Shown here: piece by piece, positions 32,580 to 58,267 of the stretch
Layout of the letters: every line of letters starts with the position of its first letter
How positions within the stretch are numbered: position 1 is the stretch's first letter
Origin: Candidatus Magasanikiibacteriota bacterium
GTDB lineage: Bacteria; Patescibacteriota; Patescibacteriia; Magasanikbacterales; GWA2-37-8
Length of the DNA stretch: 64,000 nucleotides
Assembly: GCA_036744835.1 (NCBI GenBank)
Contig: DAIOHD010000001.1
Coordinates: 611,910-675,909 of the forward strand
Reading direction: 5' to 3'
Made by a program: the position numbers and the translations under genes
Notes under the pieces: generated by a model
The model's input: only the letters and a program-made list of their open reading frames with translations
Databases searched by the model: none
Told to the model about the DNA's origin: nothing

Positions 32580-32593
32580 GAGTTTATATATTG

Positions 32594-32850: not shown

Positions 32851-34372
<1,522 letters not shown>

Positions 34373-36710: not shown

Positions 36711-39700
36711 TTAATTAATTTCTTTTATGGCCTCCGCTATTTTTACACTTAATAAATTAGAAACACCGCTTGCTCCCATAGTTACTCCATACAAGGCATC
36801 GCAGTGATGCATAGTGGTTTGATTATGTGTGATAATAATAAATTGCGATTGCTGACTCAATTCATTCATAATTTTGGCAAAACGCAAAGTATTAACCTCA
36901 TCAAGCGCGGCTTCAACTTCATCAAGAACCACAAAAGGTGAAGGATTGTAATTTAAAATCGCACAAATTAAAGCAATTGATACCAAAGTCCTTTCTCCCC
37001 CGGAAAGCATATTAATATTTTTTATTTTTTTACCAGGCGGATTAGCAAAAACATCTATTCCGGTTAAAACCTTCTCTTTTTTCTTATGTATGTTTTCTTG
37101 CCCACCTAACTCTGCAACCAACTCAGACACAGATTGTGACTGTAGAGGAGCTTCTGCTGCAACGTCTTCCGCAACTTCAATTTCATCAGAGTAAACTTCT
37201 TTCAAATCAGCTTCTCCTCCTTCAAATAAAATTTTAAAATAACGATTAAATTCAGTCTTAATTTTTTTGAAAGCCGAAGATCTTTTTTTACGCATAATCT
37301 CATCCAATTCAACGATAATTTTTTCCAAGTCTTCTATAGCTTTAGTTAAATCGTCTATTTGACCGGTTAGGAATTCATATCTTTGTTTGGTCTGTTCGTA
37401 TTCAGCCACCACTTCTTCGTCAATACCACCTATCAAACTTAGTTGATATTTATTTTTTTGAATAATACTTACTAATTCTTCTAAATTAACTTCTTCTTCC
37501 GGTTTAATAAATCTTTCTATAATTAAAGTAACATCAGAATTCATCTCGCTTTTTACTTCTTCATTAAGAGATTCTTGTTTAGTTTCAACTTTAGCTAGAG
37601 AAATTTTCAATTCACTACGTGAAGAAATAATATCATTTAATTCATTTTGTACTATTTGCATCTGTTCTTGCAAAGCAAAAATTTTCTGTTTTTTATCTTC
37701 TTCGCTTTGATTAAATTTTTCAATTTCACTACTAATAATTTTTAATTTATTTTCAGCTTCCACCATTCTTTGCATTAAAGATTCTTTTTCTATCGCTAAT
37801 TTTTTCAACTGTTGCCCATATTCTTCAGGACTTAATTTTAAAAACGATAACTCTTTGTTCAAAGTGGCAATTTCTTTTTCCACTTCTATATCTTGATTAG
37901 ACAAAAATTCACTTTTACCTTTGGCGGCTTTGAGCTCAACTTCCAAAGAAAGAAATTTACTCTTCAATGTTTCTAATTTATTTTCTATATCCAAACTATC
38001 TTGCTGTTCGAAAACTAATTGCATTTGTAAATCCTTGACTCTTTCTTCTCCAGATAAAGACATTTTATTTGAAAAACCTAAACTATTCTTATTTTGTCGA
38101 TAACCACCTTTCATGACCCCCTGCCTTTCTACTAAATCACCTTGAAGCGTCACCATGCGAGCTCTACCAATACCAACACGCCTGGCAGCTGACAAATCAC
38201 GCACAACCAAGGTATTGCCTAATACAAAAGAAAAAATGTTTTCATATTTTTTATCGTACTTTATAAAATCCAAAGCACTGCCCAGAACATCATCATGGGC
38301 TAATAATTCTTCGAAATATTGTGGAACTTCTCGCGCATTAATTTTATTCAAAGGAAGAAATGTTGCCACGCCCAATCGACGATCACGTAAATATTCAATG
38401 GCTTTTTTGGCCACGTCTTCATCTTCTACTACCAAAGAAGATAGGTTATTTCCAGCAGCCACATCCAAAGCCAAGCGATAATCGTCCTGTACTTCACCGA
38501 GATCCGCCACCAAACCATAAATTTTACCCAAATTATTTTTGGCTTCAAGCACCGCTTTAACGGTTGTCAAACCCGATAATTGCAAATAATTATGTTCACT
38601 CTGACTTTCGAACATTTGTGTTTGCAATTTACTTATTTTTAAACTATTTTCTGCCTTATTGGCATGTAAAGCATTCATCTCTTTACGTTGCAAAACAATT
38701 TCATTTTCAAGTTTCTTATATTCATTTTCAGAAGAGGCCACTTGTTGAAGTAAGCTTTCCCGATCGGATTGTAATTCTTTGACTTTATTTTCAAGCCAGC
38801 CAATATTTTGTGAACCTCGCTGACTATATTCCGTATGCATTTGACCTTCGAGAATAGTCAGCTCTCTTTCCAAAGAATTTTTTTCTCTGACAGCTTCCTG
38901 ATATTTATTTTGTAACTCATTAAAATTTTCTTGTCTGGTTGAAGCTCTGGCTAAAGAAGCCAATTCGGTCTGAATTTGTTCTAAACGGTTTTGAATTTCT
39001 TGGCACGTCTTTTCAACTTGTATTAATTCTTTTTTGAGATTCTCTTCTTCATTTTTATTACGCCAATATAAATTCAAATAATATTTTTCCTGAGTTTCAC
39101 GTAAAATTATCTCCACCTCTTGTCTTTTTTCCAATTTTTTAACTTGTTTATGTAACATTTTCAAATGCGGCTCCACCTCAACGATTAATCTCTGAGCATT
39201 TTCCATGTTTTGAGCCGAACGATCAAGTTTAAGTTTTGATTGGTGGCGTTTTATCTGAAACTCTTTGATACCGGAAGCTTCATCTAAAAAGTCTTTTCTT
39301 TCTGCCGAACTAACCATAAGTAATCTATCAATCATGCCTTGACCAATAACTCCATAAGAATTTTCTGCAAACTGAGCTCTGGCCAATAACAAATGGATAT
39401 CAAAAAGACGGGTTTGGTTACCATTCAAAAGATATTCGCTTTCTCCATTGCGATAAAGACGACGCACAATCACAACTTCAGAATATTCCGGCAAAATTCT
39501 ACCATCACTATTATCTAAATTTAAAACAACCTCAGCCATTCCAAGTTGTTCTTTAAATTGTGAACCGGAAAAAATAATGTCTTCACTTTTTTTGCCACGC
39601 AAAGTTTTCATACTTTGTTCACCCATTACCCATCTGATAGCATCGGTAATATTGCTTTTACCAGAACCATTGGGACCAACTACTCCGGTAATACTAAAAC

Positions 39701-39785
39701 GACCGTCTTTTGGCGGGAGAAAATCAATAGTTGTTTTGTTCGCAAAGGATTTAAAACCCTGAATTTCCAGTCTCTTCAAATACAT
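36711..39785 (-). CDS. smc: Chromosome segregation protein SMC
   Basis: Walker A 'GPNGSGKSN', a long coiled-coil, a hinge, and C-terminal signature/Walker B ('LSGGERTLVSIALI...VVLDEVEAALD'). Confidence 0.9.
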   Translation of the reverse strand: MYLKRLEIQGFKSFANKTTIDFLPPKDGRFSITGVVGPNGSGKSNITDAIRWVMGEQSMKTLRGKKSEDIIFSGSQFKEQLGMAEVVLNLDNSDGRILPEYSEVVIVRRLYRNGESEYLLNGNQTRLFDIHLLLARAQFAENSYGVIGQGMIDRLLMVSSAERKDFLDEASGIKEFQIKRHQSKLKLDRSAQNMENAQRLIVEVEPHLKMLHKQVKKLEKRQEVEIILRETQEKYYLNLYWRNKNEEENLKKELIQVEKTCQEIQNRLEQIQTELASLARASTRQENFNELQNKYQEAVREKNSLERELTILEGQMHTEYSQRGSQNIGWLENKVKELQSDRESLLQQVASSENEYKKLENEIVLQRKEMNALHANKAENSLKISKLQTQMFESQSEHNYLQLSGLTTVKAVLEAKNNLGKIYGLVADLGEVQDDYRLALDVAAGNNLSSLVVEDEDVAKKAIEYLRDRRLGVATFLPLNKINAREVPQYFEELLAHDDVLGSALDFIKYDKKYENIFSFVLGNTLVVRDLSAARRVGIGRARMVTLQGDLVERQGVMKGGYRQNKNSLGFSNKMSLSGEERVKDLQMQLVFEQQDSLDIENKLETLKSKFLSLEVELKAAKGKSEFLSNQDIEVEKEIATLNKELSFLKLSPEEYGQQLKKLAIEKESLMQRMVEAENKLKIISSEIEKFNQSEEDKKQKIFALQEQMQIVQNELNDIISSRSELKISLAKVETKQESLNEEVKSEMNSDVTLIIERFIKPEEEVNLEELVSIIQKNKYQLSLIGGIDEEVVAEYEQTKQRYEFLTGQIDDLTKAIEDLEKIIVELDEIMRKKRSSAFKKIKTEFNRYFKILFEGGEADLKEVYSDEIEVAEDVAAEAPLQSQSVSELVAELGGQENIHKKKEKVLTGIDVFANPPGKKIKNINMLSGGERTLVSIALICAILNYNPSPFVVLDEVEAALDEVNTLRFAKIMNELSQQSQFIIITHNQTTMHHCDALYGVTMGASGVSNLLSVKIAEAIKEIN

Positions 39786-43925: not shown

Positions 43926-44343
43926 TATAAACAGGAATATTTAAATCAGTTTTAGTTTTAGGAAGACGAATAGTCAATAAACCATTTTTATATTCTGCGG
44001 CCGCACTTTCAAAACGAACATCTGTAGGTAATACAATACTGCGCGAAAACTTACCAAAATAACATTCTTTATGATGGTGATAAGCATTTACAGGTACAGG
44101 AGAAAAACGCTCTCCTTTGATAGTCAATAAATCGTTATGTAAATGTAGTTCCAAACTTTTTGGCAAAGCTCCGGCCATTGGACAGATAACAATAATCTCG
44201 GTTTCTGTTTCTGCCACATCAGCACTGAGCTGGCCGACTTCCGTATTCTCTTCTTTAGTCTCTAAATTTAATAATTCCGGCGAAAAATAGTTTTCCATCG
44301 GTAAATCAACTTCTAAATTTATTTTTGCAAATTTATCATCCAT
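43912..44343 (-). CDS. Hsp20/alpha-crystallin small heat shock protein
   Basis: 'LHLHNDLLTIKGER...FGKFSRSIVLPTDV...AEYKNGLLTIRLPK' is an alpha-crystallin domain. Confidence 0.85.
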   Translation of the reverse strand: MDDKFAKINLEVDLPMENYFSPELLNLETKEENTEVGQLSADVAETETEIIVICPMAGALPKSLELHLHNDLLTIKGERFSPVPVNAYHHHKECYFGKFSRSIVLPTDVRFESAAAEYKNGLLTIRLPKTKTDLNIPVYIVEE

Positions 44344-44443
44344 ATTTTTTATACAAAAAACTACCTAAATCAGGTAATTTTATTATACAATAAATAAAGA
44401 AAAGAGGCAAAACTATTTGATCGCTCCTCTCCTTATTTTAAAA

Positions 44444-44472
44444 TCCGCCCTTACGGGCAGATTTTTTCATGC
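44444..44472. terminator. Bidirectional-looking intrinsic terminator hairpin (CCGCCC-TTAC-GGGCAG) flanked by A/T runs
   Basis: A-run upstream and a T6 run downstream on the plus strand. Revcomp gives a U-tract for minus-strand transcripts reading in from the island side. Confidence 0.45.
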
Positions 44473-44782
44473 AGAGAGGGAGGGCCATTCGAAGTCGTCG
44501 TCCGCCAGTTGGCAGATTCCTCTTTGGAAAACCTTCGGGTTCTTCAACTCCTTTCCTCAGCGAGAGAAAACTCCCGTTTTCTCCCTTTCCCATTCGAATC
44601 CCTTTTCCTATCAAATTAAAAAATAAACAGGAATATTCCTATTTATTTTTCATGCGGTGTAGTCGGGTTAAGTACCCATAACTTCAATGTTTATAAGGGT
44701 ATTTTAGCACGAAAATAGCTATGCTGACCAGGCATATGGGTCGGGGTCTGGCTTTCAGAAAATGCGACAAATGCGACAGTAC

Positions 44783-45442
44783 TTAGAGCTTTTCAGGAGT
44801 ATTGGTAAAAGCAGTTAAATAAGGCCAAATTTTATAATTTCCAAGCACTTTTTGCGGGTCATAGATCTCGTACCATGGCGTCATGGAAAATGTATTCTCC
44901 TTGCCCTCTACTGGCATTGAGACGTATTTTAAAACTTCTTTAGGCGGTAATACGTTAACATTCTCTTTAATGAGAAAAACTTCAAAGCCTGTTTGTGGTA
45001 CAACTCGTGCCTTTAAAACGCCCTGCCGAACAAGTTTTCTTACTGTGGGCGATTTGAGTTTAAAATATGTATCAAATTCCCAGGTAGCATACCAATATTC
45101 GTCGTTATAACAAATCTTCCCAGGAATTACCTTCTTATTAACTGCGTCTTGGCAGGCAAGGCATTTTTTACCCCATTTGTCATACCAAAGTTGTTCATCT
45201 TTTATATAATTATGACAGATGCCACAGTTATAAGTTTTTCCGTCCATCAAGGAAAAACCCTTAGGAGAATCTTTCAATTTTTCTTTAAGTTTTTGTTCTT
45301 CAACATGCCCTTTTAATAAAATATCAAAAAGACCGACCAAGTTACGTCCAGCTTCTGCCGCTTCATCGTGAGTTAATTCTTTGCCATATTCTTTCTTGAA
45401 TATGTCCTGAAATTCCTTAATTGATTTTTCTGATAAAGACAT
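44783..45442 (-). CDS. Hypothetical Zn-finger protein (CGIC...CLAC)
   Basis: 'YNCGICHNYIKDEQLWYDKWGKKCLACQ' is a CxxC-x17-CxxC. No other motif. Confidence 0.45.
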   Translation of the reverse strand: MSLSEKSIKEFQDIFKKEYGKELTHDEAAEAGRNLVGLFDILLKGHVEEQKLKEKLKDSPKGFSLMDGKTYNCGICHNYIKDEQLWYDKWGKKCLACQDAVNKKVIPGKICYNDEYWYATWEFDTYFKLKSPTVRKLVRQGVLKARVVPQTGFEVFLIKENVNVLPPKEVLKYVSMPVEGKENTFSMTPWYEIYDPQKVLGNYKIWPYLTAFTNTPEKL

Positions 45443-45474
45443 TTTAGTAATAATTGTTTTATACCTTACTCAAT

Positions 45475-46572
45475 TTATAAAATATTTTCTCTTAACATAT
45501 AGCCAATAACCGAGCCTTTATTGATTAGAAAATCTAAGATCACCAAAACGTTTTGTTTTAGCTCTAAAGTTTTTCGTATTTTTTCACGATTTTTATAAAC
45601 ATATTTTCTGGCAAGATTTTCTAAATAATAAACTGTATTTACTTCGAGTTTTGCCTTCGACAGATTGGCATTATTTTTTAGCATACCCGAAAGCCAAGAT
45701 ATTCCATCGTCTAGGTATGGGCTTCCAATATCATTTAGTGATTTTGATATCGCGTATAGAGCCGATGGGCAATGACCCAGTTTTTCCGCAATTTCCTTAA
45801 AGAAGGCCTTATTCTTATCTTTAAGTGTGTGCCATTCAACAGCTGACTCCTTCCAAGGATTTTGAGCAAAGAGGTAACTTTTTACAATTTTATCAACATA
45901 CCAATACCCGTCACCCTTTTTGCACATATCAATTATCTTTTCTTGAAAAAGACTCCAAACTTCCCAAAAGTTTTCATAGCAGTTTAAATAATCTTCAGCA
46001 GAGATAAATTCTTCAAACAAATCCGCTATTGCTTCTGAGCTACTAAATTTGTCAATAAATGGCTTTAGATATTCCGAAATTTCTTTTTTAGGTGAACTTA
46101 AAATGAAATATGCTAATTTCTCTAAAAAATCATGTCTAACTTTATAATCAACCCTGTCTTCTCTGTCATTTGAAATTATTTTTTCGGCAAAAGCAGAGAT
46201 GATTTTTTTAACTATTGTTTTATGGTCCTCATTCTCTGTCTTAAGTGGAATTAACTGAAAAGCTGTCTTAAGCGTATATAGATCTATTTTTTCAATGTCA
46301 TTTATATTATCGATTGATAATTTGTTATTTAAAATTTTATCTATAGTCGCCTTATTTTCTTTAAGAAATTTTTTCATTACATCCCTGTCTTGCGTGTTAT
46401 ATTCATGCTTTTTATAATTCTCCTGACGTATTTTTTCTTGTAGAGCGTCAAATTTTGGTTTTAGCAATAAATAGCCAAATAAAATTGACTGCGCCGTCTT
46501 CAAAAGAAGATTTCCATATTTTTTGAACAGCAATAATTGCGAATGCATTGAAACTAGTGCCAGCCATGTCAA
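45475..46572 (-). CDS. Hypothetical protein (start uncertain; 5' 124 nt overlap the upstream NTPase gene in another frame)
   Basis: The ORF track's extent overlaps the end of the 46448..50296 gene. The first internal Met that avoids the overlap is at ~46377. The pair may be a frameshifted single gene. Confidence 0.35.
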   Translation of the reverse strand: MTWLALVSMHSQLLLFKKYGNLLLKTAQSILFGYLLLKPKFDALQEKIRQENYKKHEYNTQDRDVMKKFLKENKATIDKILNNKLSIDNINDIEKIDLYTLKTAFQLIPLKTENEDHKTIVKKIISAFAEKIISNDREDRVDYKVRHDFLEKLAYFILSSPKKEISEYLKPFIDKFSSSEAIADLFEEFISAEDYLNCYENFWEVWSLFQEKIIDMCKKGDGYWYVDKIVKSYLFAQNPWKESAVEWHTLKDKNKAFFKEIAEKLGHCPSALYAISKSLNDIGSPYLDDGISWLSGMLKNNANLSKAKLEVNTVYYLENLARKYVYKNREKIRKTLELKQNVLVILDFLINKGSVIGYMLRENIL

Positions 46573-49500
46573 TCGGATAACAATTGAATAGATTAAATAT
46601 AAGTATTTCTTTTATTACTTTTTTCTTATTAGGAAGTTTTTCCAATAGAATTGGCAACACAGAAATCGCTGACTGTGCACCATCAGTAGATTGATATTGA
46701 TAATTTGGCTCAGACGTTATAATAGCTAATTCCAAAACTACATCAAAACAGAAACGTAGTTCTTTTTCTGTAAGCTTATCTGAGAAATCTTTTATCATTG
46801 CAGAACAAACTTCCGCTGGAATAGAATTATTAAGAAGATAAAAACCTTCTTCTTCTGAGTGTTCAAGCTTAAAAGACTCTGGTTTTTTAGATATTTTTAA
46901 TTTTGTAATGATTTCTTCAGCTTCTTTAAGTGCAAGCTTCGGATCATCTTCGTATTGTTTATATTGTTTATATTTTTCATCGTTTCTGATTCTGTAATTT
47001 GCCCACAATTTCAACTGGGTATACTTCATAGGCTCAGAGCTTTTTGCAAGTGATTTTTCACTATATTCTTTTAGTTCTGGGTCAATTTCTGGATTAAAAC
47101 TAATTAAATATCCATTCTCATTTTTTTCTGAAGCAATATTCATCTTTCTTCTATCCATTCTTGCAAGATAAAGCCTCCATGTTTTATCAGACTCTGTTTC
47201 AATTGATGGATCGGGTAATTTTTTATAGTAGTCATCTAATATTTCCCATAATTCTTTTTGTCTGTTTTTTGAATCTTCTTCGTCTACACCTTCACCTCTA
47301 AATAACTGGTAATTCAAGAATAGATTTTCTAGAGATAATTTTCGGTGTTTCTCGTCGCATGCCTGTATTCTTTCTGCTTCATGAAATTCATTTTTTGAGT
47401 TACCGCCACCAAATACCTTTAATGATTGAAGCATACCTTTATGCCCTTGGTCTAAAACCAATCTACCGGTATCACAAAAGAAAAAATCTTTTGTTTTGAA
47501 AAGAATTTTAGCAATATTAAAAGTTTTTTCAGGGTAGGCCAACACAATACTTGCCACCACTGCCGATATAGAGGTAGACCTTGAATTTTTAATAAGATAA
47601 AAAAGCCAACTCTCTAAGGCTTTTGAATCAGTAGCCTTTCCGTTTTCAAGGAAAAACTTTTCTAATGCCATGTGCATAGATTGCAAAACATATGGCGCTG
47701 GTGCCGATGATCCTCTATACATATTCCAAAGCCTTCCATTTCTGCTGTCGTATTGTTTTATTGTGTTTTCTTTTTCAATAAATATCTCAACTTCTTTAAC
47801 TTCATATTTGGCAAATTCAGTTTTAGCAAAATAATCTACTGATTTATTCGTAAATTTTAAAATAAAGTCTATTGTTTCCTGAAGCGAAGATTGCAGCAGC
47901 CAATAAATGGGAGTTTGATATGAGCTAGCAGGAAAATAGTCTAAATGTTCATCTTCCATGTCAAAATGTTCTTCCATACCTATTCCAGGGCGGCTATAGT
48001 AACAATCTTCCTTTGGAGTAAATGACCAAAATAAATCAGCCAGTTGCAATACATACTTAGGAAGTGTCTTAGCAACGGCTACACCTTCAAGTTTCGTTAA
48101 AATCATTTCAGACAAATCATTGTATGGATCTCTGTGATTCTTCCATTTATTCTTTAGAATTTCTTTTAAAATTTCTTCTAGCTCGTTTTTGATTTCAAGG
48201 GTGCTATAAAGAATCGTCTGCAATAAATTGTTTTTTGTACCATCGTCAGAAATAAAAATATCTTCTTTTATAGTCCATTGATAGTACTTTAATGCAATTA
48301 AACCAGAATATTTCGTAGTTTCTCCCTCCTTAAACTTACTAGTCCAATCATGAATTATTGGCAAAATAAAATGGATGTTTTGAGTGCCTATTTTATCAAA
48401 ATTATCAAAAACAAATTTTATAAGACATTCCCATCCCTGTCCTTTTGGTTTCGTTAAAACATACTTTAAAGAAAAAACATTTAGGTTTTTAATCCCAAGT
48501 TGTCCAAAAAAATCGTTATCAACTTCCTTACATGCAATTCTTAATAGGAAAAATATTCTATGCAATAAACTCTCCTCGTATTTATAATCAACAGTTACTG
48601 ATTGAACAACCTTGGATGAATTATCATATTTAACAATCTTTTGAGGTGCACTCAATAATTCATTTTTGAAAAGATCAAAAAACACACAAGAGAAATCAGA
48701 AAGAAGAACAGAAACCAATATCTCATCTTTCCAGAATGATTCTATATCTTTATTTTTTATAACCTGCTCAATAAATTCTTTGATGTTTTTATCCTGTAGC
48801 AACAATTTTTCAGACAGCCATTTTCTGAATGCCCGACGCATAGGCAAAGAACTGCCTATATTTTGAAAGAAAGATTTAATGTCAGATTTTTTCCCGGACT
48901 CTACTTCAATATTTTTTTCTAATGCCCATTCTTCATAAATATCATGCGTAATAAAATATCCACGCGGTGATTCATATCCTAAAATTCCATCCTTTTTTAA
49001 TTCATCCAAAATACTCGACTCACAATTGGGGGTGATAAAAAATTGTCCTTCATCCGCTCTTTGAAAGGCTATTTTCAAAAAACATTGCTCTCTTGCAGGC
49101 TTTGATTTAATAATTATCTTATTCCATAATTTATCTTTAAACTCCGTATAGTTAATTTGCTCTCCTTCTTTATAGAATTTTAAATATTCATTTAGATAAA
49201 ATGGATTTTTGATGAGATCTGCCAATTTTTCATCACTAGGAAGTGCGAAACTATACGAAGCAGAGAGAGAATTTAATCCTGTTATGTCTAAATTCTGAAT
49301 ATTTATGTTTAGAGGTGCAATTTTATAAATTTCAAAAAATTGATAATTTAAGTCTTCTAAATAATTATCTCTTGTTGTAAAGATAATTTTCCAGTTTTCC
49401 TTTATTAAGATTGTTAAAAATTCTTTGAAAGGATCTGTATTTTTTAAATCCAGCAATTTTTCCGCAGAATCAATTACAATAATTTTTTCCGTTTCTTCTT

Positions 49501-50296
49501 TGTGCCCATCCAAGAATTCTTGGAAGCTATAGCCTGTAAAAAAATCACTTATATTTCTTAATTCAAATTCGGTTGCTTTGAAAAGATAGAAAGGAATATT
49601 ATCTTTCGTTCCCTCGTAAAAATCCTTGATGACTGCCGTTTTCCCAACTCCACCTACACCACTTAAAATCAATACTTTTTCTTGACTGATCCTAATTTTT
49701 ACTAAATCATCATTCCTGTCAATTTTAATATTTTGATTATTAAAAGTAATAGATGTTTGTATCTCGTTTAAGATATTTTCCGAATGGTCTCGTTGATTTT
49801 TTATCAGATCAAAAATACTTTTACCCAGACTAAAAAAATGTTTAGCTATGATTTCACTATCTACGGACACAAAAGGTGATTCAAAATAACTAGCCACATT
49901 CCATACTAATTTAATTCCGAGTTCATTCGCTTTTTTCTCAACATCTGTTTTTCCTTGTGGCTCCTTACCTTTATTTTGACCCCATTCTTGATTGGTATAA
50001 AAAACAAATTTTGTAATATTGGGATAATCTCTTTTAGCCTTTTCTAGAGCACCAATAACATCAGTCTTACATGTAGTTTTTGATAAAGAATCACCGTAAA
50101 ATTTAGCCTGCCACCCGATCATTTCCTCTCCATCTTTTATTGGATCGTTTTCTATAGCAGATTGATTTTTATAACGAAATATACCAGTATCTTTTTTATA
50201 TTCTCTGCAAAATAATAAGTAGCAAAACCACTCAAAATTACTTTGAGGATTTTCGCTAAATTTTGCTTCAAATATTTTCCAGTTTGGCTTTATCAT
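46448..50296 (-). CDS. Large (1282 aa) STAND-like P-loop NTPase: N-terminal ~200-aa domain of unknown function, central Walker A/B NTPase, long C-terminal alpha-helical region (candidate antiviral STAND/Avs-like defence protein)
   Basis: Walker A 'ILSGVGGVGKTAV' at ~aa 205-217 and Walker B 'KIIVIDSAEKL' ~60 aa downstream. The remaining ~950 aa are predicted helical-repeat-like. The tripartite layout is typical of NACHT/STAND proteins. Confidence 0.65.
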   Translation of the reverse strand: MIKPNWKIFEAKFSENPQSNFEWFCYLLFCREYKKDTGIFRYKNQSAIENDPIKDGEEMIGWQAKFYGDSLSKTTCKTDVIGALEKAKRDYPNITKFVFYTNQEWGQNKGKEPQGKTDVEKKANELGIKLVWNVASYFESPFVSVDSEIIAKHFFSLGKSIFDLIKNQRDHSENILNEIQTSITFNNQNIKIDRNDDLVKIRISQEKVLILSGVGGVGKTAVIKDFYEGTKDNIPFYLFKATEFELRNISDFFTGYSFQEFLDGHKEETEKIIVIDSAEKLLDLKNTDPFKEFLTILIKENWKIIFTTRDNYLEDLNYQFFEIYKIAPLNINIQNLDITGLNSLSASYSFALPSDEKLADLIKNPFYLNEYLKFYKEGEQINYTEFKDKLWNKIIIKSKPAREQCFLKIAFQRADEGQFFITPNCESSILDELKKDGILGYESPRGYFITHDIYEEWALEKNIEVESGKKSDIKSFFQNIGSSLPMRRAFRKWLSEKLLLQDKNIKEFIEQVIKNKDIESFWKDEILVSVLLSDFSCVFFDLFKNELLSAPQKIVKYDNSSKVVQSVTVDYKYEESLLHRIFFLLRIACKEVDNDFFGQLGIKNLNVFSLKYVLTKPKGQGWECLIKFVFDNFDKIGTQNIHFILPIIHDWTSKFKEGETTKYSGLIALKYYQWTIKEDIFISDDGTKNNLLQTILYSTLEIKNELEEILKEILKNKWKNHRDPYNDLSEMILTKLEGVAVAKTLPKYVLQLADLFWSFTPKEDCYYSRPGIGMEEHFDMEDEHLDYFPASSYQTPIYWLLQSSLQETIDFILKFTNKSVDYFAKTEFAKYEVKEVEIFIEKENTIKQYDSRNGRLWNMYRGSSAPAPYVLQSMHMALEKFFLENGKATDSKALESWLFYLIKNSRSTSISAVVASIVLAYPEKTFNIAKILFKTKDFFFCDTGRLVLDQGHKGMLQSLKVFGGGNSKNEFHEAERIQACDEKHRKLSLENLFLNYQLFRGEGVDEEDSKNRQKELWEILDDYYKKLPDPSIETESDKTWRLYLARMDRRKMNIASEKNENGYLISFNPEIDPELKEYSEKSLAKSSEPMKYTQLKLWANYRIRNDEKYKQYKQYEDDPKLALKEAEEIITKLKISKKPESFKLEHSEEEGFYLLNNSIPAEVCSAMIKDFSDKLTEKELRFCFDVVLELAIITSEPNYQYQSTDGAQSAISVLPILLEKLPNKKKVIKEILIFNLFNCYPIDMAGTSFNAFAIIAVQKIWKSSFEDGAVNFIWLFIAKTKI

Positions 50297-50308
50297 AGGA
50301 TTAATTCA

Positions 50309-50950
50309 TTAATTCTTAACCACCCTCACAGCAACTCCATTGACCATATAACTGAAGCTGTTTAAATCTGATTCGTGCAAAATAATCGGCGGTATTTCTC
50401 GCTTTGATTCAGAGATAAGACGAACCTCATGCTTTGCATCGTCTTTGAAGAATTTTTTAAAATTAGCGGCCTCATCGATAATGGACAAAACATAATCACC
50501 GTCGCTCGGTTGTTTTTTACAATCAACTATTACATAATCGCCATCATCTATACTTTCTTTACTGGTACCAACTTTGGCATTATTCAAAGAATCACCGACA
50601 GCCTTAATAGCAATCAAACCATCAGGTCGTGATCTGCCAACAGACTTTTGGGAAATTTTAAGATAGCCCTGAATGTTTTCTTGCGCCAATTCAGTAGCAG
50701 GACCACAATTAGCGGAACCGAGTACTGGAATATTAAAAAAACTATCCACTGAGAACGCTTTTGGTTTAGCTACTCTCTGTCTTTTCTTAGTATCAAAATA
50801 TAACAACCCCTTCTTCTTGAGCTGTTCAAGATGGTAGATAACTGTTTGGGGATTGGGAATACCAAGTTCACGGCCTATTTCCCTAAAAGTCATCTTGGAA
50901 ATATCCTTTTTCTTAGCTAAATCTATTATTTTTTGCTGGTTTTCGTTCAT
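50309..50950 (-). CDS. LexA/phage-cI-like repressor (winged-HTH + S24 peptidase domain)
   Basis: N-terminal 'MTFREIGRELGIPNPQTVIYHLEQLKKKG' (HTH) and C-terminal 'AVGDSLNNAKV...DGDYVIV...DGDYVL' (S24 Ser-Lys dyad fold). It is divergent from the MTase gene. Confidence 0.75.
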   Translation of the reverse strand: MNENQQKIIDLAKKKDISKMTFREIGRELGIPNPQTVIYHLEQLKKKGLLYFDTKKRQRVAKPKAFSVDSFFNIPVLGSANCGPATELAQENIQGYLKISQKSVGRSRPDGLIAIKAVGDSLNNAKVGTSKESIDDGDYVIVDCKKQPSDGDYVLSIIDEAANFKKFFKDDAKHEVRLISESKREIPPIILHESDLNSFSYMVNGVAVRVVKN

Positions 50951-51007
50951 AAGGCTTGTTTATAATTTATTATTAACTACTTCTAGTATAATCTAAACCG
51001 TTTCTAA

Positions 51008-51044
51008 TGTCAATGAATTATTATTGACACCGTTGACAGTCAAT
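51008..51044. promoter_or_regulatory. Palindromic operator candidates: TGTCAAT-N8-ATTGACA and TTGAC-A-GTCAA in the repressor/MTase divergent intergenic region
   Basis: Perfect 7-nt inverted repeat at 51008-51014/51023-51029. Adjacent perfect palindrome TTGACAGTCAA at 51034-51044. Three TTGACA/TGTCAA half-sites lie within 37 nt. Confidence 0.5.
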
Positions 51045-51304
51045 ACCGCTAGGGTGTATATTTTAAGTAGGTTTGAATACCAAACAACAAACCAAGAACC
51101 TTACGACAATTGAATAGAAATAATGCAACCTAAATAAAAAGCGAGGGCTCATTCCCTCAATTAGGCCGGAGCACTTATTTCACTACACCAAACACGAAAT
51201 GCTTTTTTGTGTTGGAAAAGTGAAATAGGTGCTTTTTATTTTGGTCAGGTCGAGCATTACTCAATTCTTCGTGGTGAGAATTAAAAAATAATTTATAAAA
51301 CAAT

Positions 51305-52633
51305 ATGAACAATCAAAAAATAAACATCGTGGAAGTTCCGATCAATGAACTTCAAGCATCGGAGTATAATCCGCGCAAACATTCCAAAGAGCAATCTGAC
51401 CAACTCAAGGAATCAATTAAAAGATTTGGTATGGTTGATCCAGTAGTTTGCAATAGCGCGCCAGAAAGAAAGAACGTCATTATTGGCGGTCACTTCAGAG
51501 TTGAGGTAGCCAAAGAAATGGGTATGGTTAATATTCCAGTAGTCTACGTTCAGATAGCCGACTTAAATAAAGAAAAAGAATTAAACCTCCGCCTTAATAA
51601 AAATACCGGGGAGTTTGATCTTGAACTGCTCGCTGAATTTGACGAGGCATTTTTAGCCGACATCGGATTTGATAGTCAAGAACTGGATGACATTTTCCCG
51701 ACAGAAGATAATCCCGAACAGTTTGATCTCAAGCAAGAGTTGGAAAAACTAGATATTAAAAGTATCTCTGTACAAAAAGGAGACATCTATGAATTAAATG
51801 GCAGTCGCTTAATGTGCGGCGATTCAACAATAGAGACAGACATGATTAAGCTCATGAACGACAACAAGGCTGATATGTGTTTTACTGACCCACCATACAT
51901 TCTTGATTATCTTAAGGGTAAAACAAAACAAAAAGATGGAGTAACTACAGGTTTCGGGGCAAAGAAAAATCGTCGTTATCTTGAGACCGACGTTTTACCC
52001 GATAACTTTACCGAATTATGGATGGGAAACATAAGCAAAATCGCAAAAGATAATTTTGCCATTATTGTTTATGAGAATTGGAAGAATATCCGCACTATTT
52101 GGAACGAAATGGAAAAGTATTGGAAAGTTAAAAACATGATCGTATGGCATCTGCCTAATAGAGTTCAAGGATTTTCAGCTAAGTATAAATTCTTCAACAA
52201 GCACGATATTGCTATGGTCGGAGCAACTGACGACAGGATGCTCAATGAATCGGACGAAATAGAATTATTAGAAAATGAATACGAGACGGCTCTTTACGCA
52301 ATATCTGGGAAACCACACTGGGAATCATATGAAAAAGGAAAGAAAATTTGTCCAACTGATTTTATAGAATATGTTTCGGCAGATGAAAAATCATCAGGGC
52401 AAGGAGTAATTTTTGGGACCAAGCCCCTAGAGATACTCATTCCTTACATAAAAGTCCTGACTAAACGAGAAGACTTAGTGGTAGAACCATTTGGTGGTAG
52501 TGGATCAACTTTAATAGCGGCAGTTAAAATGCATCGCCGTTGTTATCTTATGGAGAAAAGTCCAACTTACGCCCAAGTAATACTTAAACGCTGGGAAAAA
52601 GAAACTGGCAAGAAGCCTGTAAAAATAAACTAA
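51305..52633 (+). CDS. ParB-like nuclease domain fused to a DNA N6-adenine/N4-cytosine methyltransferase (DPPY ... FGGSG order)
   Basis: N-terminal ParB/Srx-like 'IIGGHFRVEVAKEMGMVNIPV'. MTase motif IV 'FTDPPY' (~aa 195) precedes motif I 'VVEPFGGSGSTLIAA' (~aa 395), the beta-class order. No cognate restriction endonuclease is seen, so this looks like an orphan/phage-type MTase. Confidence 0.8.
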   Translation: MNNQKINIVEVPINELQASEYNPRKHSKEQSDQLKESIKRFGMVDPVVCNSAPERKNVIIGGHFRVEVAKEMGMVNIPVVYVQIADLNKEKELNLRLNKNTGEFDLELLAEFDEAFLADIGFDSQELDDIFPTEDNPEQFDLKQELEKLDIKSISVQKGDIYELNGSRLMCGDSTIETDMIKLMNDNKADMCFTDPPYILDYLKGKTKQKDGVTTGFGAKKNRRYLETDVLPDNFTELWMGNISKIAKDNFAIIVYENWKNIRTIWNEMEKYWKVKNMIVWHLPNRVQGFSAKYKFFNKHDIAMVGATDDRMLNESDEIELLENEYETALYAISGKPHWESYEKGKKICPTDFIEYVSADEKSSGQGVIFGTKPLEILIPYIKVLTKREDLVVEPFGGSGSTLIAAVKMHRRCYLMEKSPTYAQVILKRWEKETGKKPVKIN

Positions 52634-52634
52634 T

Positions 52635-53150
52635 ATGGTTGACGACAAGACAAAACAAAAACTGCTCAAAGAACTTGAAAAAAGCGGCAATGTTTGGTCG
52701 TCTTGTCTTAAATTGAATGTTCACAGATCAACATATTATCGCTGGAAAGAAACGGACAAAGAGTTTAGACGATTGGCTAATACAGCCGAACGACACGGTC
52801 GTGAAAATATGTGTGATATTGCGAAGCACGCTCTCATGCTTAATGTGAAAGATAAAAAAATGGAGGCAATAAAATATGTATTGAGTCACCTGGATCCGCC
52901 GTTCAAGAGAAAGCAGACCAGCAATGTGGTCATACTTCATAAAAAAGATATTATTCCTCCTGTGCCTCAAAAAACACTAGAAGATCTGTTTGATGAATTA
53001 GCAGATAATAAAATAGTTTCTACTGACACTGTGGACTCAAAATCCGTGATGGATAAGCCGCCAGTAACGCTTCAAGAGAATCAAACGCCTTCAGGTAATC
53101 AGAGCTCAAATTCTGCCATTCAGGACACGAAGATGGATAGTAGTACTTAG
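52635..53150 (+). CDS. HTH protein, phage terminase small-subunit-like / IS-type HTH
   Basis: 'LNVHRSTYYRWKETDKEF' is a homeodomain-like HTH, as seen in TerS and IS3 OrfA proteins. It has a low-complexity C-terminus and overlaps the convergent nuclease gene by ~130 nt. Confidence 0.45.
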   Translation: MVDDKTKQKLLKELEKSGNVWSSCLKLNVHRSTYYRWKETDKEFRRLANTAERHGRENMCDIAKHALMLNVKDKKMEAIKYVLSHLDPPFKRKQTSNVVILHKKDIIPPVPQKTLEDLFDELADNKIVSTDTVDSKSVMDKPPVTLQENQTPSGNQSSNSAIQDTKMDSST

Positions 53151-54111
53151 AAGTTCGATATGACGAAGTATAATATTTGCCGGTTGTTTGAGAACTTGCT
53201 TGAGATGAAGATGAATCAGTCACGCTTGAAGTCGTGTCACCGTTGCATGTGTCGGGAGACCATAATCCTCTGAGATTTTGTTGAGCTGATTTCTGAGCCG
53301 CCTTAAAGTCTGCTTGATACTTGTATGGCGTGTTATATGTGTATTCGTGGGCATAACCTTGTTCAATCATATATTTGTTGTAAAACAAACCATCTTCGCG
53401 ATAGATATATGCAAGTCGACGACCATATTTATCCAGCTCGCCCTGAGTTAAATCTGGCTCAAGATGAACCTTCTTGCCACTCAATAATTCTTTGGCCTTA
53501 TTGGATGCCTCTTTGCCAAAACATTGGACTGGTTTTCTCGGATCAACCGTCTCTGGTGTATCCATGCCAATAAGTCGTAAGGTCTCAATCGTACCGCCTA
53601 TATTCACCTTTATAGTGTCGCCATCTACAACGCTTGAAACGGAATAATATTCATATTGTGAATTATTTTGAATTGCTGGAGTCGGAATTGTAGTTGTCTT
53701 TTCTGTTTGAGTCGTCTGAACATTTTTAGTTTGTTGAGCTTCTGTTTTGGGTTGCTCCTCTGTGGTTGTGGTAGATTGATTTTCAATGAGCGCATCAGGT
53801 TTATTGATTTGCGTTGATTCCTTGTTTTCACTTTCAACAGAAGCGCTCTCATTGCTGATTGGCTTTTCTGTTTTTGGAGCAGTTATACCGATACCAAAAA
53901 AAGAAACAATTATTATTGCAGAACAAACAATCGCAATAGTTTTTCTTTTAGGAATAATTTTAATTGCTCGTTTAAAAACAGACGGCTTAATTAATCCGAC
54001 AATTAAAGAGATGATTGATAGCAATAATGTTAATAAAAATATGTAGGTCATATGGTTGGAAAACAAAAAACCAGCTGTCTTATAGCTGGCGATGGAGATA
54101 TGTGGATACAC
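53020..54111 (-). CDS. Membrane-anchored secreted thermonuclease (SNase-like) with Thr/Gln-rich linker
   Basis: N-terminal TM. SNase core 'VVDGDTIKV...TLRLIGMDTPET...CFGKEA...YGRRLAYIY'. C-terminal Ser/Thr-rich region with a Cys pair. Confidence 0.8.
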   Translation of the reverse strand: MYPHISIASYKTAGFLFSNHMTYIFLLTLLLSIISLIVGLIKPSVFKRAIKIIPKRKTIAIVCSAIIIVSFFGIGITAPKTEKPISNESASVESENKESTQINKPDALIENQSTTTTEEQPKTEAQQTKNVQTTQTEKTTTIPTPAIQNNSQYEYYSVSSVVDGDTIKVNIGGTIETLRLIGMDTPETVDPRKPVQCFGKEASNKAKELLSGKKVHLEPDLTQGELDKYGRRLAYIYREDGLFYNKYMIEQGYAHEYTYNTPYKYQADFKAAQKSAQQNLRGLWSPDTCNGDTTSSVTDSSSSQASSQTTGKYYTSSYRTSKYYYPSSCPEWQNLSSDYLKAFDSLEALLAAYPSRILSPQCQ

Positions 54112-54408
54112 AGAACCCCGCGCCAGCTAGACCTTACGGTCCCATACCAGTTTCCCGATATGACCCAACGAAGAGTCGCTGAACGCGGGGTTCAGTATCT
54201 TCGTTGGGGTTTCCCGACCATATCCTTTGGAAAACCAAAGGGGTTAGGTCGCTGGTCTTTCGGCCAGTAATATTAAATTGTTAAGTACATTTTACCAGAA
54301 AATCCAAGGGATTTAAAGGCCTCTGTACTTTAGCTTAATAACAGGGGTTTGCGAAGCCTAAGTTACCAACAACTTATCTACTCGGGACGCTCTGGACTCC
54401 TTTGAGGA

Positions 54409-55755
54409 TTGGCGTCATTCATTAGATATATGAAAATAACAGCCCCAAAGGGCTATGAGGTGGCCCAAATACAGCCTCAAACGGTCAAAGTCAGATATTG
54501 CCTGTATGCCCGTAAATCAACGGAATCCGAGGAAAGGCAGGTACTTTCCATAGATTCACAGATAAAAGAGATGCTTCAGCTCGCTGAACGAGAATGTTTA
54601 GAAGTAGTCTGTATGAAGCGAGAAAGTCATTCAGCCAAGGAAACTGGACAAAGACCAGTCTTTAACGAGATTATCGAAGAAATACGAGCCAAGAAGTATA
54701 ACGCCATTCTCACTTGGGCTCCTGATCGTATTTCAAGAAATGCCGGAGACTTAGGAAAAATCGTGGATTTAATGGATGCGGGACTATTACAAGAAATCAG
54801 AACCTTTGGACAAAAATTCTCAAACAATCCAAATGAAAAATTTTTGCTGATGATTCTCGGTTCGCAAGCAAAACTTGAAAACGACAACAGAGGCGTAAAC
54901 GTAAAACGCGGATTACGAACAAGAGTAGAAATGGGATTGTGGCCGGGTGTAGCCCCACTCGGATATTTGAATCAAAATTTGATGGATAAAAAATGCCAAG
55001 TGATTGTTGATCCGCAACGAGCCCCAGCAATTAAGAAAATATTTGAAAAAGTAGCATACGAGCATTACTCAGGTAGAAAGTTATACAACTGGTTACGGCA
55101 CGAATTAAATTTCTATACCCGAGGAAATAAGCCACTAACGCTAAGCGGTATATACAGGATTTTGGATAACCATTTCTATTACGGCACGTTTGAATCACCG
55201 AAAGGTAGCGGTAATTGGTATCAAGGAAAACACGTGCCAATCATAACTCAAGAACTATTTGAAAAAGCTCAGGCACAGCTTAAGCGAGACAATATTCAGC
55301 GAGAGAATAAAGAATTTGCTTTCACGAAGCTATTTACATGCGGATATTGCGGAAGTGGAATATCTGCAGAAGAAAAATGGAAACAGCTTAAAGACGGAAC
55401 GCACGCCAAATACATCTACTATTCATGTAGCAGAGCGAGAAATAGAAATTGCAAAAATCACTATATACGAGAGGAAGATTTAATAACTGAATTACTCAAG
55501 ATATTAGATAAGGTAAATATAAATGAGCTTGGTATGAGGCAAAAACTAGAAGATGAAATAGCACGATTCAATATTTTCCGAAGGTCAGTTCTTGGTGCAA
55601 CAGAAAAGATTAAAAACAATCAAGATACCGACATAAGAAACTTTGCCAAGTATATTCTAAAAGAAGGCACGATTGGCGAAAAAAGAGAGTTGTTGGCAAA
55701 CCTGAGATCGAGAATAATTTACAAAGATAAACAACTTACACTGATTGAGGAATAA
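54409..55755 (+). CDS. Large serine recombinase (resolvase catalytic domain + recombinase domain + Zn-ribbon)
   Basis: 'YCLYARKSTESEERQVLSIDSQ' is the catalytic Ser motif. There is a central recombinase domain. C-terminal 'CGYCGSGIS...YYSCSRARNRNCKN' is a zinc ribbon. ~448 aa. Confidence 0.85.
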   Translation: MASFIRYMKITAPKGYEVAQIQPQTVKVRYCLYARKSTESEERQVLSIDSQIKEMLQLAERECLEVVCMKRESHSAKETGQRPVFNEIIEEIRAKKYNAILTWAPDRISRNAGDLGKIVDLMDAGLLQEIRTFGQKFSNNPNEKFLLMILGSQAKLENDNRGVNVKRGLRTRVEMGLWPGVAPLGYLNQNLMDKKCQVIVDPQRAPAIKKIFEKVAYEHYSGRKLYNWLRHELNFYTRGNKPLTLSGIYRILDNHFYYGTFESPKGSGNWYQGKHVPIITQELFEKAQAQLKRDNIQRENKEFAFTKLFTCGYCGSGISAEEKWKQLKDGTHAKYIYYSCSRARNRNCKNHYIREEDLITELLKILDKVNINELGMRQKLEDEIARFNIFRRSVLGATEKIKNNQDTDIRNFAKYILKEGTIGEKRELLANLRSRIIYKDKQLTLIEE

Positions 55756-55790
55756 CAAAAATACACGATCGACTTGTGTATTTTTGTTTA

Positions 55791-57977
55791 TTAAAATCCA
55801 GATAACCCCTCTAACTTTTTGTAATGCATTGGATCAAGTATCTTAACCAACTGCAAAGCTTCTTGTATCCTTACATTCGCGTTCATTATTATTGATTCAT
55901 CCGTTGATTCTGTATCAGGAAATCCATGAGATCCATGATTTATAAATCTATACATTTCTAAATGATCAGCAGCGAAAGGGGTGGTCCATTTTTCAGTAAT
56001 CTTTTTAGCCTCTGCGTATGCAGATTCAAGAGTTGATTGAAGATCACCCGTTGTTGAAAATTTAAACTCAAGGAATGTTTCTAGCCATCGCCTCAATAAA
56101 TTAACTACTAAATGTGCATCCGCAGCATCGCAAGAATCTTTATGTTTCGCTAGTACATTAAAAACATAGTAATAATCCGATCTGTGATCTCGCAGCAATC
56201 TATTTATTGGTTTTATTGTAGATCCAGTATCTAATGCCTCAATGCTGCAAACATTGATTAACCCATCATCAATTTTTTTACGATAACCTTCTTTAAGGTG
56301 TCCTAGAAAATCTAAATTGTGCGTCAAAATAAAATATTGCCTAGTAGGATGTTTCTTAATTTCATTAACTATAATAGAAAAAATTTGGAATATTGACTGC
56401 TTGTCTAAACTTGAAACAGGATCATCAATAATAACAACTCCGTCATCTGATAGTTTATTCTGTGTATCATTAATAGAATAAATAAAGTACGCCAGTGCTA
56501 TAAAATTCTTTTCGCCCTCACTTAAGCTAGAAAAAACACAGTTAACCCCATCTCTTTTTAGTGCATATCCCTTACCATCATCAGCATCCGTAATTTCTAT
56601 TTTCCTATAAGGAAAAACTACTTTAAAAAGACGATTTAAAGCTTGTGCTGGTTCAAGCGTGTTTTTAACTTTCTGTTTTAATTCCTTAACTTGATTGTCT
56701 AAATTTGAAATCTCAAGTCCTATTGCGACTCTTTGCTTTACAGTATTATCATATGACTCTTTTTCTCGAGTATACTGCTCATATTGCTGGGCTACATAAT
56801 GCGCCTCTATTGAGTAGGCTATAGAAGTGGAGTCAGTCGGTGTTGGCTTAGATAATGGGGTTATTTTTTCTGTATCTAAAGAATATGTTTTCTTGGGAGT
56901 AGATACGGAAGCTCTTTTTTCCTTTAGAATTACAGCTAAAGAATCAAAAATCGATCTCACATGATCGATGTTTTGTTGTTGTATAGTAGAAAGAGAATCT
57001 AGTTTTGCGAAGCTAGTTGTATAACTATCAATATTTTTCAAAAATAAATCTATTGAATCTGTTACCTTAACAATTTCATTAGAAAAGTGTTTTATCAGTT
57101 CGTCGGTATTTTTAATATCAGAATCACAAAACAAACATTTGGTTAATGATTGTTCTTCGTTAAAATGCAAGCTTACACCTTGTTTAATCCAACTAGTTTG
57201 TAGCTCACTAAGATTATCTATTCTTTTTGAATGAACTTGAACAGGTTGTGACTCTAAAATTAGGTTAATGTCTGCAATATTATTTGTAATCCAATTAACT
57301 GCACTAGCTATTTCATTGTCATTTTTTGCTGATCTCTCTGTGTTCATTAATTGATTTTTTAAAGAATCAATATCCGAACGTATTAATTCAGAAGAACTTT
57401 TAATTTTACCGTCAGCAATCTTTTTGTTAATATCAGCTACTCTTTTTTCAAAATCAGTTTTTGAATAACTAGCATAAGTTCCTGCACCAACAAGTTCCTT
57501 TTTAATACTATTGATACCACCAACTTCTTTGATTACTACAGCTGTAGTACTAGCTATATCATCATGTTTTGTTGGGAGAATAATTTTATTATATTCATCC
57601 CTTTTTTCTTTTAATTTTTGTTCTTCGGTGTCGTAGCTTACAGCCTCCTTGCCAGCAAAAAATATATAAGGAATAGTTGAACTCTCTCGTAATGTTTCTT
57701 CAATATAATTCCCATTAAAAACTCTGACATTACCTTTTATTAAATTTAAATCACTATTTTCAGTAATTTGAGAAAGATCCGTTTTAATCTTAAATGTACA
57801 GTTTTTTTCGATTATTCCAGTTTCTAAACATCGCAAAACTTTCGAAAAAGTTGTTTTACCAGATCCATTCCAACCAAATAGAAGATTGATTCCATCAGAA
57901 AAATCACACAACGAAGAGTCCCATGAGTAATTATGGAACCTTGCATGATTGAGTTTTTCAATCTTTTGTATTTTCAT
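55791..57977 (-). CDS. RloC/PrrC-family (AAA_13) ATPase, candidate tRNA anticodon nuclease with Rad50-like CxxC zinc hook
   Basis: Walker A 'LFGWNGSGKTTFS'. A coiled-coil insert contains 'CLFC'. ABC signature 'LSEGEKNFIALAYFIY' then Walker B/D-loop 'VVIIDDPVSSLD'. The ~200-aa C-terminus has 'LRRWLETFLEFKF' and conserved His/Arg, consistent with the PrrC/RloC nuclease domain as I recall it. Confidence 0.6.
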   Translation of the reverse strand: MKIQKIEKLNHARFHNYSWDSSLCDFSDGINLLFGWNGSGKTTFSKVLRCLETGIIEKNCTFKIKTDLSQITENSDLNLIKGNVRVFNGNYIEETLRESSTIPYIFFAGKEAVSYDTEEQKLKEKRDEYNKIILPTKHDDIASTTAVVIKEVGGINSIKKELVGAGTYASYSKTDFEKRVADINKKIADGKIKSSSELIRSDIDSLKNQLMNTERSAKNDNEIASAVNWITNNIADINLILESQPVQVHSKRIDNLSELQTSWIKQGVSLHFNEEQSLTKCLFCDSDIKNTDELIKHFSNEIVKVTDSIDLFLKNIDSYTTSFAKLDSLSTIQQQNIDHVRSIFDSLAVILKEKRASVSTPKKTYSLDTEKITPLSKPTPTDSTSIAYSIEAHYVAQQYEQYTREKESYDNTVKQRVAIGLEISNLDNQVKELKQKVKNTLEPAQALNRLFKVVFPYRKIEITDADDGKGYALKRDGVNCVFSSLSEGEKNFIALAYFIYSINDTQNKLSDDGVVIIDDPVSSLDKQSIFQIFSIIVNEIKKHPTRQYFILTHNLDFLGHLKEGYRKKIDDGLINVCSIEALDTGSTIKPINRLLRDHRSDYYYVFNVLAKHKDSCDAADAHLVVNLLRRWLETFLEFKFSTTGDLQSTLESAYAEAKKITEKWTTPFAADHLEMYRFINHGSHGFPDTESTDESIIMNANVRIQEALQLVKILDPMHYKKLEGLSGF

Positions 57978-58115
57978 ACATAATTAGTTTATCACTTTTT
58001 TGAGTCTCTTAATAGATTAAAAACACGATTTTTATCGTGTTTTTAATATCAATCTATATACTCGGGTCGCACATTCGCCATGAGCGTATGGGTTGACTCC
58101 GATAAAAAATTGTCT

Positions 58116-58211
<96 letters not shown>

Positions 58212-58267
58212 ATTGTGTTTAAATGTTTTAAGATATTACCAAATAAACTATTTTTGGTCAAGTTAAG

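Follow-up and report, generated by a model that had tools for sequence, protein, structure and literature searches.

The Avs4 (AVAST type 4) family of anti-phage proteins, its mechanism and its presence in genomes of the candidate phyla radiation (CPR) are already known. The reference Avs4 senses the phage portal and its Mrr nuclease tetramerises, and the protease-Pepco or MBL-linked Avs4 homologues of Streptomyces and Acinetobacter carry protease effectors directed at a partner protein (PMC12642450). Here we describe a further member of the family in a CPR bacterium, Candidatus Magasanikiibacteriota bacterium (assembly GCA_036744835.1). The whole stretch of DNA analysed, referred to below as the window, comprises 64,000 nucleotides (contig DAIOHD010000001.1, positions 611,910 to 675,909), and all positions are given within it unless another locus is named. 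Two overlapping minus-strand open reading frames (ORFs) in this window, ORF1 (46448..50296) and ORF2 (45475..46572), are on grounds of homology one Avs4 gene of 1606 codons. It is fairly likely that this gene carries a real and fresh frameshift, making it a pseudogene, and that it is cargo of a serine-recombinase island.

The proper label for the locus is that of an Avs4 gene (AVAST type 4 anti-phage nuclease) with a frameshift, and neither that of a pair of hypothetical proteins nor that of a new STAND protein. Beyond the label, the locus shows Avs4 as the cargo of a mobile element in the ultra-small genomes of CPR bacteria, provides a probable case of recent disruption of a defence gene and, in the form of a conserved, probable repressor–Avs4 operon, offers a candidate for regulated expression of a STAND sensor.

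Family assignment

The initial annotation of this DNA had described a 1282-aa ORF at 46448..50296 and a second ORF at 45475..46572 overlapping its 3′ end by 124 nt. Both are present on the minus strand in the ORF listing and translation: ORF1 opens with an ATG and has 1282 codons plus a stop, and ORF2 encodes 365 aa in the +1 frame relative to ORF1, the measured overlap being 125 nt (46448..46572). Open runs of such length are not a product of chance in DNA of ~31% G+C: if each codon has a stop probability of 3/64 or more, simple arithmetic puts the chance of 1282 open codons below 1e-26 and that of the 339 open codons following the frameshift below 1e-7.

Both ORFs match one and the same protein family, with E values from 0 to 1e-119. 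The PADLOC Avs4 model scores 1809 bits against ORF1, over profile positions 1–1232 of 1570, and 467 bits against ORF2, over positions 1229–1570. The NCBIfam equivalog NF041815 (‘AVAST type 4 anti-phage nuclease Avs4’) behaves in the same way, covering positions 1–1241 of 1579 in ORF1 (1683.9 bits) and 1239–1579 in ORF2 (428.8 bits), and ORF1 alone passes its equivalog cut-off of 1500 bits. The sole solved structure matched is PDB 8DGF, the E. coli Avs4 bound to the PhiV-1 portal, with ORF1 residues 1–1275 aligning to residues 1–1256 of chain 8dgf_A (1451 bits) and ORF2 residues 26–365 aligning to residues 1248–1587 (E = 4e-119). As the two ORFs tile both the 8DGF chain and the profiles, they represent one Avs4 protein from end to end, and the initial proposal of an antiviral, Avs-like STAND protein of effector–NTPase–sensor layout is borne out.

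Searches with the repaired 1606-aa sequence retrieved 1880 homologues. The best 120 of these are single chains of ~1520–1611 aa at up to 91% identity, several of which have been named Avs4 by NCBI, including proteins from Candidatus Paceibacterota and Levybacteria. The single uninterrupted ORF of ~1550–1610 codons that is seen in the Avs4 family is not the case here. The 5′ part of the gene (46448..50296, minus strand) is authentic Avs4 over codons 1–1267, its last 15 codons, GAVNFIWLFIAKTKI, being out-of-frame read-through, and the 3′ part (45475..46493, minus strand), which encodes the end of the C-terminal sensor, continues in the +1 frame for 339 codons and a stop; the open frame itself extends up to a TTG at 46572. 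Homology of the sensor is thus unbroken across both ORFs as far as 8DGF residue 1587, in two frames, and the ~950 aa of helical C-terminal sequence first allotted to the protein proved to be an underestimate, since the sensor runs on for 339 codons after the shift. The insertion behind this arrangement bears on the function of this copy, not on its Avs4 family origin.

The nuclease and NTPase domains

The N-terminal ~200 aa had been left unassigned, with the suggestion of a degenerate nuclease-like effector. Pfam returned no match for the N-terminal domain, whether residues 1–190 were searched alone or within the whole protein, and its lack of a model for this domain explains the earlier label. 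The assignment therefore relies on the Avs4 models, the 8DGF structure and a search by fold. An AlphaFold 2 (AF2) model of residues 1–190, with a predicted local distance difference test (pLDDT) score of 79.8, was compared with known structures by Foldseek; its best match was the N-terminal domain of 8dgf_A (E = 4e-21, TM 0.74, 60% identity) and the second-best PDB match was the restriction endonuclease EcoT38I. The Foldseek matches of this model included neither a TIR nor a SIR2 fold.

Judged from alignment and model, the domain (aa 1–190, 49727..50296, minus strand) is the Mrr-type PD-(D/E)xK nuclease of Avs4, and not a degenerate one. In family alignments E49 (50150..50152) and K65 (50102..50104) are invariant and Q63 (50108..50110) is at least 90% conserved, the last two within a GWQxKFY motif. 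These three are the candidate catalytic residues on the basis of family conservation, a choice which follows the general PD-(D/E/Q)xK pattern.

The nuclease domain is followed by the STAND NTPase. The Walker A and Walker B motifs reported earlier were both recovered and are conserved in a 121-sequence alignment of the family. The former, ILSGVGGVGKTAV (G213-V-G-G-V-G-K-T220, 49637..49660, minus strand), has G213, G216, G218, K219 and T220 conserved, and the latter, KIIVIDSAEKL, consists of I272-I-V-I-D276 (49469..49483, minus strand) followed by conserved S277 and E279. Pfam nSTAND3 and AAA_14 match residues 203–334 below threshold, and this region aligns to the NTPase of 8DGF.

From these parts a mechanism can be proposed for the intact protein by analogy with the reference system. 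The C-terminal helical sensor would bind a tailed phage's portal protein during infection, upon which the STAND NTPase would drive assembly of a tetramer; this would unite the Mrr nuclease domains, such that DNA would be degraded and the infection aborted. In the window copy the one-base insertion is expected to truncate the sensor and to leave a fresh pseudogene.

The one-base insertion

The frameshift lies at 46494..46495 (minus strand), where an extra coding-strand G is found inside a GG pair; the window reads GAAGACGGCGCAG where intact relatives have GAAGAC-GCACAG. All aligned relatives share the protein junction SSFED-AQSIL, and five intact relatives at 87–92% identity are without the extra G in protein and DNA alignments, the DNA comparison covering four related CPR loci designated L001, L004, L046 and L047. 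After codon 1267 the frame moves by +1 and ORF1 then passes through 15 unrelated codons to its stop at 1282 aa, so that the truncated product is without the last 339 sensor residues, about one fifth of the protein.

The rest of the gene shows no decay. There is not one stop in the 339 codons downstream of the shift, and among the positions that are at least 95% conserved in the family the window copy departs at just one. Compared with P0001, its nearest relative, the window copy is 91.7% identical on the 5′ side of the frameshift and 90.6% identical on the 3′ side. The insertion would on this account be either very recent or an artefact; no intact allele more than 92% identical was found in the protein collection searched. 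Of the two, a real, very recent inactivating mutation is moderately favoured, because a product of precisely these 1282 aa is recorded by NCBI, ENA and Logan, on two contigs, because there is no long homopolymer at the site and because Logan contigs of two runs match the window at 100% identity over their overlap.

The explanation that best survives beside a real mutation is that the extra G arose in sequencing or consensus building, and that in the organism the gene is an intact 1606-codon ORF encoding a working defence system. We regard this as possible, though unlikely. It would account for the open post-shift frame, the intact catalytic motifs and the single departure from highly conserved positions, the source is a metagenome-assembled genome, and none of the seven other members of the 90% cluster is interrupted; against this, the truncated product appears both in the NCBI/ENA record and in the independent Logan assembly, and the insertion falls in a two-base run, whereas indel errors concentrate in long homopolymers, of which an A6 and a T4 run lie close by. 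The DNA alignment also places a GCA to GCG substitution next to the insertion, which is a real allele difference.

A number of considerations nevertheless weigh against the reading of a real pseudogene with the mechanism proposed above. A base-calling error in the consensus is possible, and the NCBI and Logan assemblies may come from the same read sets. The total lack of other decay suits a very recent mutation and an artefact equally well. That the truncated product has lost its function is an assumption, in that we expect it to be inactive, and portal sensing is transferred from a ~60%-identical homologue in a very different host.

It is improbable that the split gene is still functional, either through a truncated sensor or by reassembly of ORF1 with a separately initiated ORF2. 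ORF2 is conserved and open throughout, with an in-frame TTG (46572) and ATG (46548) upstream of the shift; however, neither of these is preceded by a Shine–Dalgarno-like sequence, both lie inside translated ORF1, the break falls within a continuously conserved region, and there is no split Avs4 among the best 120 of the 1880 homologues.

Still less probable is a programmed +1 ribosomal frameshift giving a regulated, low level of full-length Avs4. The idea was prompted by the end of ORF1, AAA AUU UGA C, where AUU UGA C resembles the +1 frameshift site of prfB, CUU UGA C, and a +1 slip anywhere in 46448..46572 would unite both frames. Yet the arrangement is unique to this allele, the 87–92% identical relatives carrying the same downstream bases in one frame, there is no upstream Shine–Dalgarno-like stimulator, and a slip at the stop codon would swap 14 conserved residues, AQSILFGYLLLKPK, for unrelated ones; programmed frameshifting was dropped for want of conservation. 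The initial annotation had left the choice between a programmed and a mutational frameshift in a once longer protein: the longer protein stands, as does the mutational origin (or a sequence error), while the programmed one does not, given that the best 120 of the 1880 homologues are all single ORFs.

That the protein is a housekeeping or otherwise unrelated P-loop ATPase with no part in defence is a negligible prospect. Pfam alone gives only sub-threshold AAA_14, nSTAND3 and AAA matches, but the Avs4 models and the solved Avs4 structure match at full length with E = 0, and the gene sits on a mobile island and adjoins restriction–modification genes in its relatives.

The LexA/CI-like repressor and putative promoter region

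Directly upstream of Avs4 lies a gene for a LexA/CI-like repressor (50309..50950, minus strand), with a winged helix-turn-helix (HTH) and an S24 autopeptidase domain (Pfam LexA_DNA_bind, 6e-6; Peptidase_S24, 2.6e-13). Its sequence shows GDS and KK motifs as well as a candidate cleavage site, C-G. It scores 74.2 bits against TIGR00498, the model of bona fide LexA, below the equivalog cut-off of 110.95, and matches PHROG 4 (transcriptional/phage repressor); it was therefore classed as a LexA/CI-like repressor of the element. The gene holds the same place upstream of Avs4 in L001, L046, L047 and a further related locus, L029. Only 12 nt separate its stop from the ATG of Avs4, and no terminator-like site was found between the two genes.

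Between the repressor gene and a divergent ParB-methylase gene is a divergent, putative promoter and operator-like region (50985..51062). On the minus strand, upstream of the repressor gene and Avs4, is a promoter match made up of TTGACA (51013..51008), a 17-nt spacer and TATACT (50990..50985), and on the plus strand a second consensus match (51033..51062) faces the ParB-methylase gene. These two divergent promoter matches are the best (11/12) within 44300–51400. Two TGTCAA repeats on the minus strand (51038..51033 and 51029..51024) are operator-like and may serve as such. All five loci compared share both TGTCA(A) repeats and the −35 element TTGACA without change, although the intergenic region averages only 52% column identity. 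As a layout, the divergent promoter pair with its TGTCAA/TTGACA repeats is genetic-switch-like.

Avs4 is probably carried on one transcript with the LexA/CI-like repressor, from a promoter that would be autoregulated. Two points count on the other side: the case for co-transcription is drawn from just the spacing and the consensus matches, and the total number of promoter-like sites in 44300–51400 is no higher than in shuffled sequence. A more elaborate and rather doubtful proposal is that in this family of CPR islands Avs4 would not be expressed constitutively but would form the second gene of an operon under a self-cleaving LexA/CI-like repressor that would bind the conserved TGTCAA operators over its own promoter, in which case DNA damage or RecA activation would raise Avs4 expression. 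The arrangement in five loci, the short gap, the absence of a terminator-like site and the invariant repeats are all compatible with such a regulated operon. If true, this would be a regulated and possibly feed-forward STAND defence, in which damage by the Avs4 nuclease itself could boost Avs4 expression.

A terminator-like hairpin with a T run, TGAGGGAATGAGCCCTCG (51159–51142, minus strand), closes a ~150-nt non-coding stretch (51140–51300) upstream of the repressor promoter. The hairpin is kept in L047 and partly in L046, and the stretch may be a small transcript; Rfam at gathering threshold gave no match in 51140–51300.

The integrative island and its borders

Avs4 and its repressor belong to an island of ~13.7 kb between an Hsp20 gene (ending at 44343) and tRNA-Ser(GCT) (58116..58211, minus strand), the 3′ end of the tRNA gene forming the right-hand edge. 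Two independent Logan contigs identical to the window stop at this 3′ end, one at 58119 (observed) and the other at ~58113 (by arithmetic from record coordinates). The junction may therefore be variable or heterogeneous among the cells sampled; no assembly-breaking repeat was found there. Across 43800–58400 a search for att-type direct repeats gave merely chance-level AT-rich matches. For a serine recombinase a lack of such repeats is expected. With no att repeats found, the left border, between 44343 and 44783, is set by gene content alone.

Directly downstream of Avs4 is a gene for a 219-aa protein (44783..45442, minus strand) with no Pfam, PADLOC, NCBIfam or PHROG match. A 219-aa gene is in the same position in L046, the gene at that position in L001 is unrelated, and the 219-aa gene accompanies Avs4 only in relatives of at least 90% identity; members of its protein cluster come from contigs equal in length to those of Avs4 cluster members. 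Whether it belongs to the system is uncertain, and it can be considered an Avs4 accessory only with that reservation.

On the other side of the repressor are an orphan-type ParB_N–N6/N4 DNA methylase (51305..52633, plus strand), a small HTH or terminase-small-like gene (52635..53150, plus strand; weak PHROG match, E = 2e-6), a SNase-family nuclease (53020..54111, minus strand), a LOOT RNA (54129..54250, minus strand; Rfam RF03000), a large serine recombinase (54409..55755, plus strand) and an AAA_13 ATPase of 728 aa (55791..57977, minus strand; Pfam 276 bits). The ATPase, which adjoins the serine recombinase at the tRNA-Ser end and has weak PrrC/LmuB-like similarity, matches the PADLOC candidate PDC-S06 at 322 bits. 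The SNase-family and small HTH ORFs converge and overlap by 131 nt (53020–53150), and their counterparts in L046 overlap too (5934–7109 and 6979–7641).

The initial annotation had placed the gene in an island of defence-type genes. Besides Avs4, PADLOC gave one candidate in the window, PDC-S06. The claim thus holds in part: what can be retained is a mobile island with this one candidate defence gene, the ParB-methylase and a SNase-LTD nuclease; the island does not appear dense in defence genes and has housekeeping flanks. The SMC gene at 36711..39785 (minus strand), possibly counted as defence at that stage, is the chromosomal SMC (TIGR02168, 725 bits); PADLOC mad3, LmuB and AriA matches to it were set aside for this reason. 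A prophage reading was also considered and dropped, since profile matches including PHROG revealed no phage structural genes (capsid, portal, tail) within 44.4–58.1 kb, just the weak terminase-small-like HTH gene, and the 87% relative, used to scan the viral contigs of IMG/VR, gave zero matches.

Related loci and the LOOT RNA

The module of SNase, HTH, ParB-methylase, LexA-like and intact Avs4 genes recurs in L001, L029, L046 and L047, the chromosomal surroundings of which differ; L046 and L047, for instance, carry the same module in differing chromosomal contexts. Genes of the rest of the island (51305..57977) are near Avs4 in L001, L004, L022, L029, L046 and L047. In L004 Avs4 adjoins AlwI restriction–modification genes, and in L046 type I restriction–modification genes.

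LOOT RNA was found in the window and in five of the eight related Avs4-carrying CPR loci, at 76–98 bits, the gathering score of RF03000 being 46.4. Its positions are 54129–54250 (minus strand) in the window, 3028–3148 in L004, 12893–13016 in L022, 1509–1641 in L029, 5890–6010 in L046 and 1424–1545 in L047. In the window, L046 and L047 its immediate 3′ neighbour is the SNase-family gene; in L029 a SNase homologue lies downstream of it, and in L004 and L022 it precedes a zinc-ribbon gene and a T5orf172 gene, respectively. The RNA looks like a standing component of this family of CPR mobile elements; no published function for it was found in a literature search.

Chromosomal surroundings

The window is otherwise chromosomal, with genes for FtsA, FtsZ, pyruvate kinase, GatA, HisRS, TrmD, S16, 16S rRNA, SMC, ClpP, VanW and Hsp20, and its proteins all map to one contig of 906 kb. 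Among FtsZ relatives with a name, at 64–66% identity, nearly all belong to Candidatus Magasanikbacteria, which places the host in the CPR/Patescibacteria. A giant ORF of 3120 aa (17069..26431, minus strand) adjoins a gene for a 684-aa T4SS-pilin and Big_5 protein (26476..28530, minus strand), and the pair resembles the large surface proteins and pilus genes of CPR bacteria. After the 16S rRNA gene (32852–34378, minus strand) come tRNA-Ile, tRNA-Val and finally a gene for a TrmA-like methyltransferase (together 31110–34378), the spacer having tRNA-Val in the usual place of tRNA-Ala. No 23S rRNA gene was detected within the 64-kb window, and the rRNA genes therefore appear unlinked. The SMC protein is a shortened one, of just 1024 aa against a profile of 1181 positions, which it matches in three stretches.

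Comparison with known systems

The closest characterised system is the E. coli Avs4 of 8DGF, likewise a single-gene system that combines an Mrr-type nuclease and a STAND NTPase with a helical domain for portal sensing. The two proteins are ~60% identical over the full chain, of which the window ORFs tile residues 1–1587, and the nuclease residues E49 and Q63-x-K65 as well as both Walker motifs are conserved in the window copy. Unlike the E. coli gene, the window copy is broken by a 1-nt insertion after codon 1267; it has ~19 residues fewer in a loop of the nuclease domain and an extra segment of ~23 residues around 553–575. The host is a CPR bacterium with a genome of ~0.9 Mb rather than an enterobacterium, and the gene is placed directly downstream of a LexA/CI-like repressor.

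Other systems share parts of this design. The protease-Pepco or MBL-linked Avs4 homologues have the same portal-sensing STAND core, whereas the window protein has a fused nuclease like EcAvs4. Avs1–3, Avs5 and Avs7 follow the common STAND logic of a sensor, NTPase oligomerisation and effector activation but have other sensors and targets, and the PADLOC Avs2 model scores just 10 bits on the window protein. With regard to gene order, in the cI-rexA-rexB region of phage lambda a CI-type repressor is followed by a defence gene in the same transcript, beside divergent promoters with repeated operators. The repressor–Avs4 layout of the window is similar, co-transcription and repressor binding here being what we infer from sequence features, and, in contrast to lambda, the element is an island without phage structural genes.

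The nearest counterparts of all are the Avs4 genes of other CPR bacteria. Three proteins, P0001, P0126 and P0127, are 91–92% identical to the window protein, and such genes often occur in the same module; the Avs4 of L004, from ‘Patescibacteria group bacterium RA.bin104’, is 87% identical, and those of Staskawiczbacteria, Saccharibacteria and Vogelbacteria 76–79%. These relatives differ from the window copy in having uninterrupted ORFs of 1601–1606 aa, and their islands have other insertion sites and other adjacent cargo.

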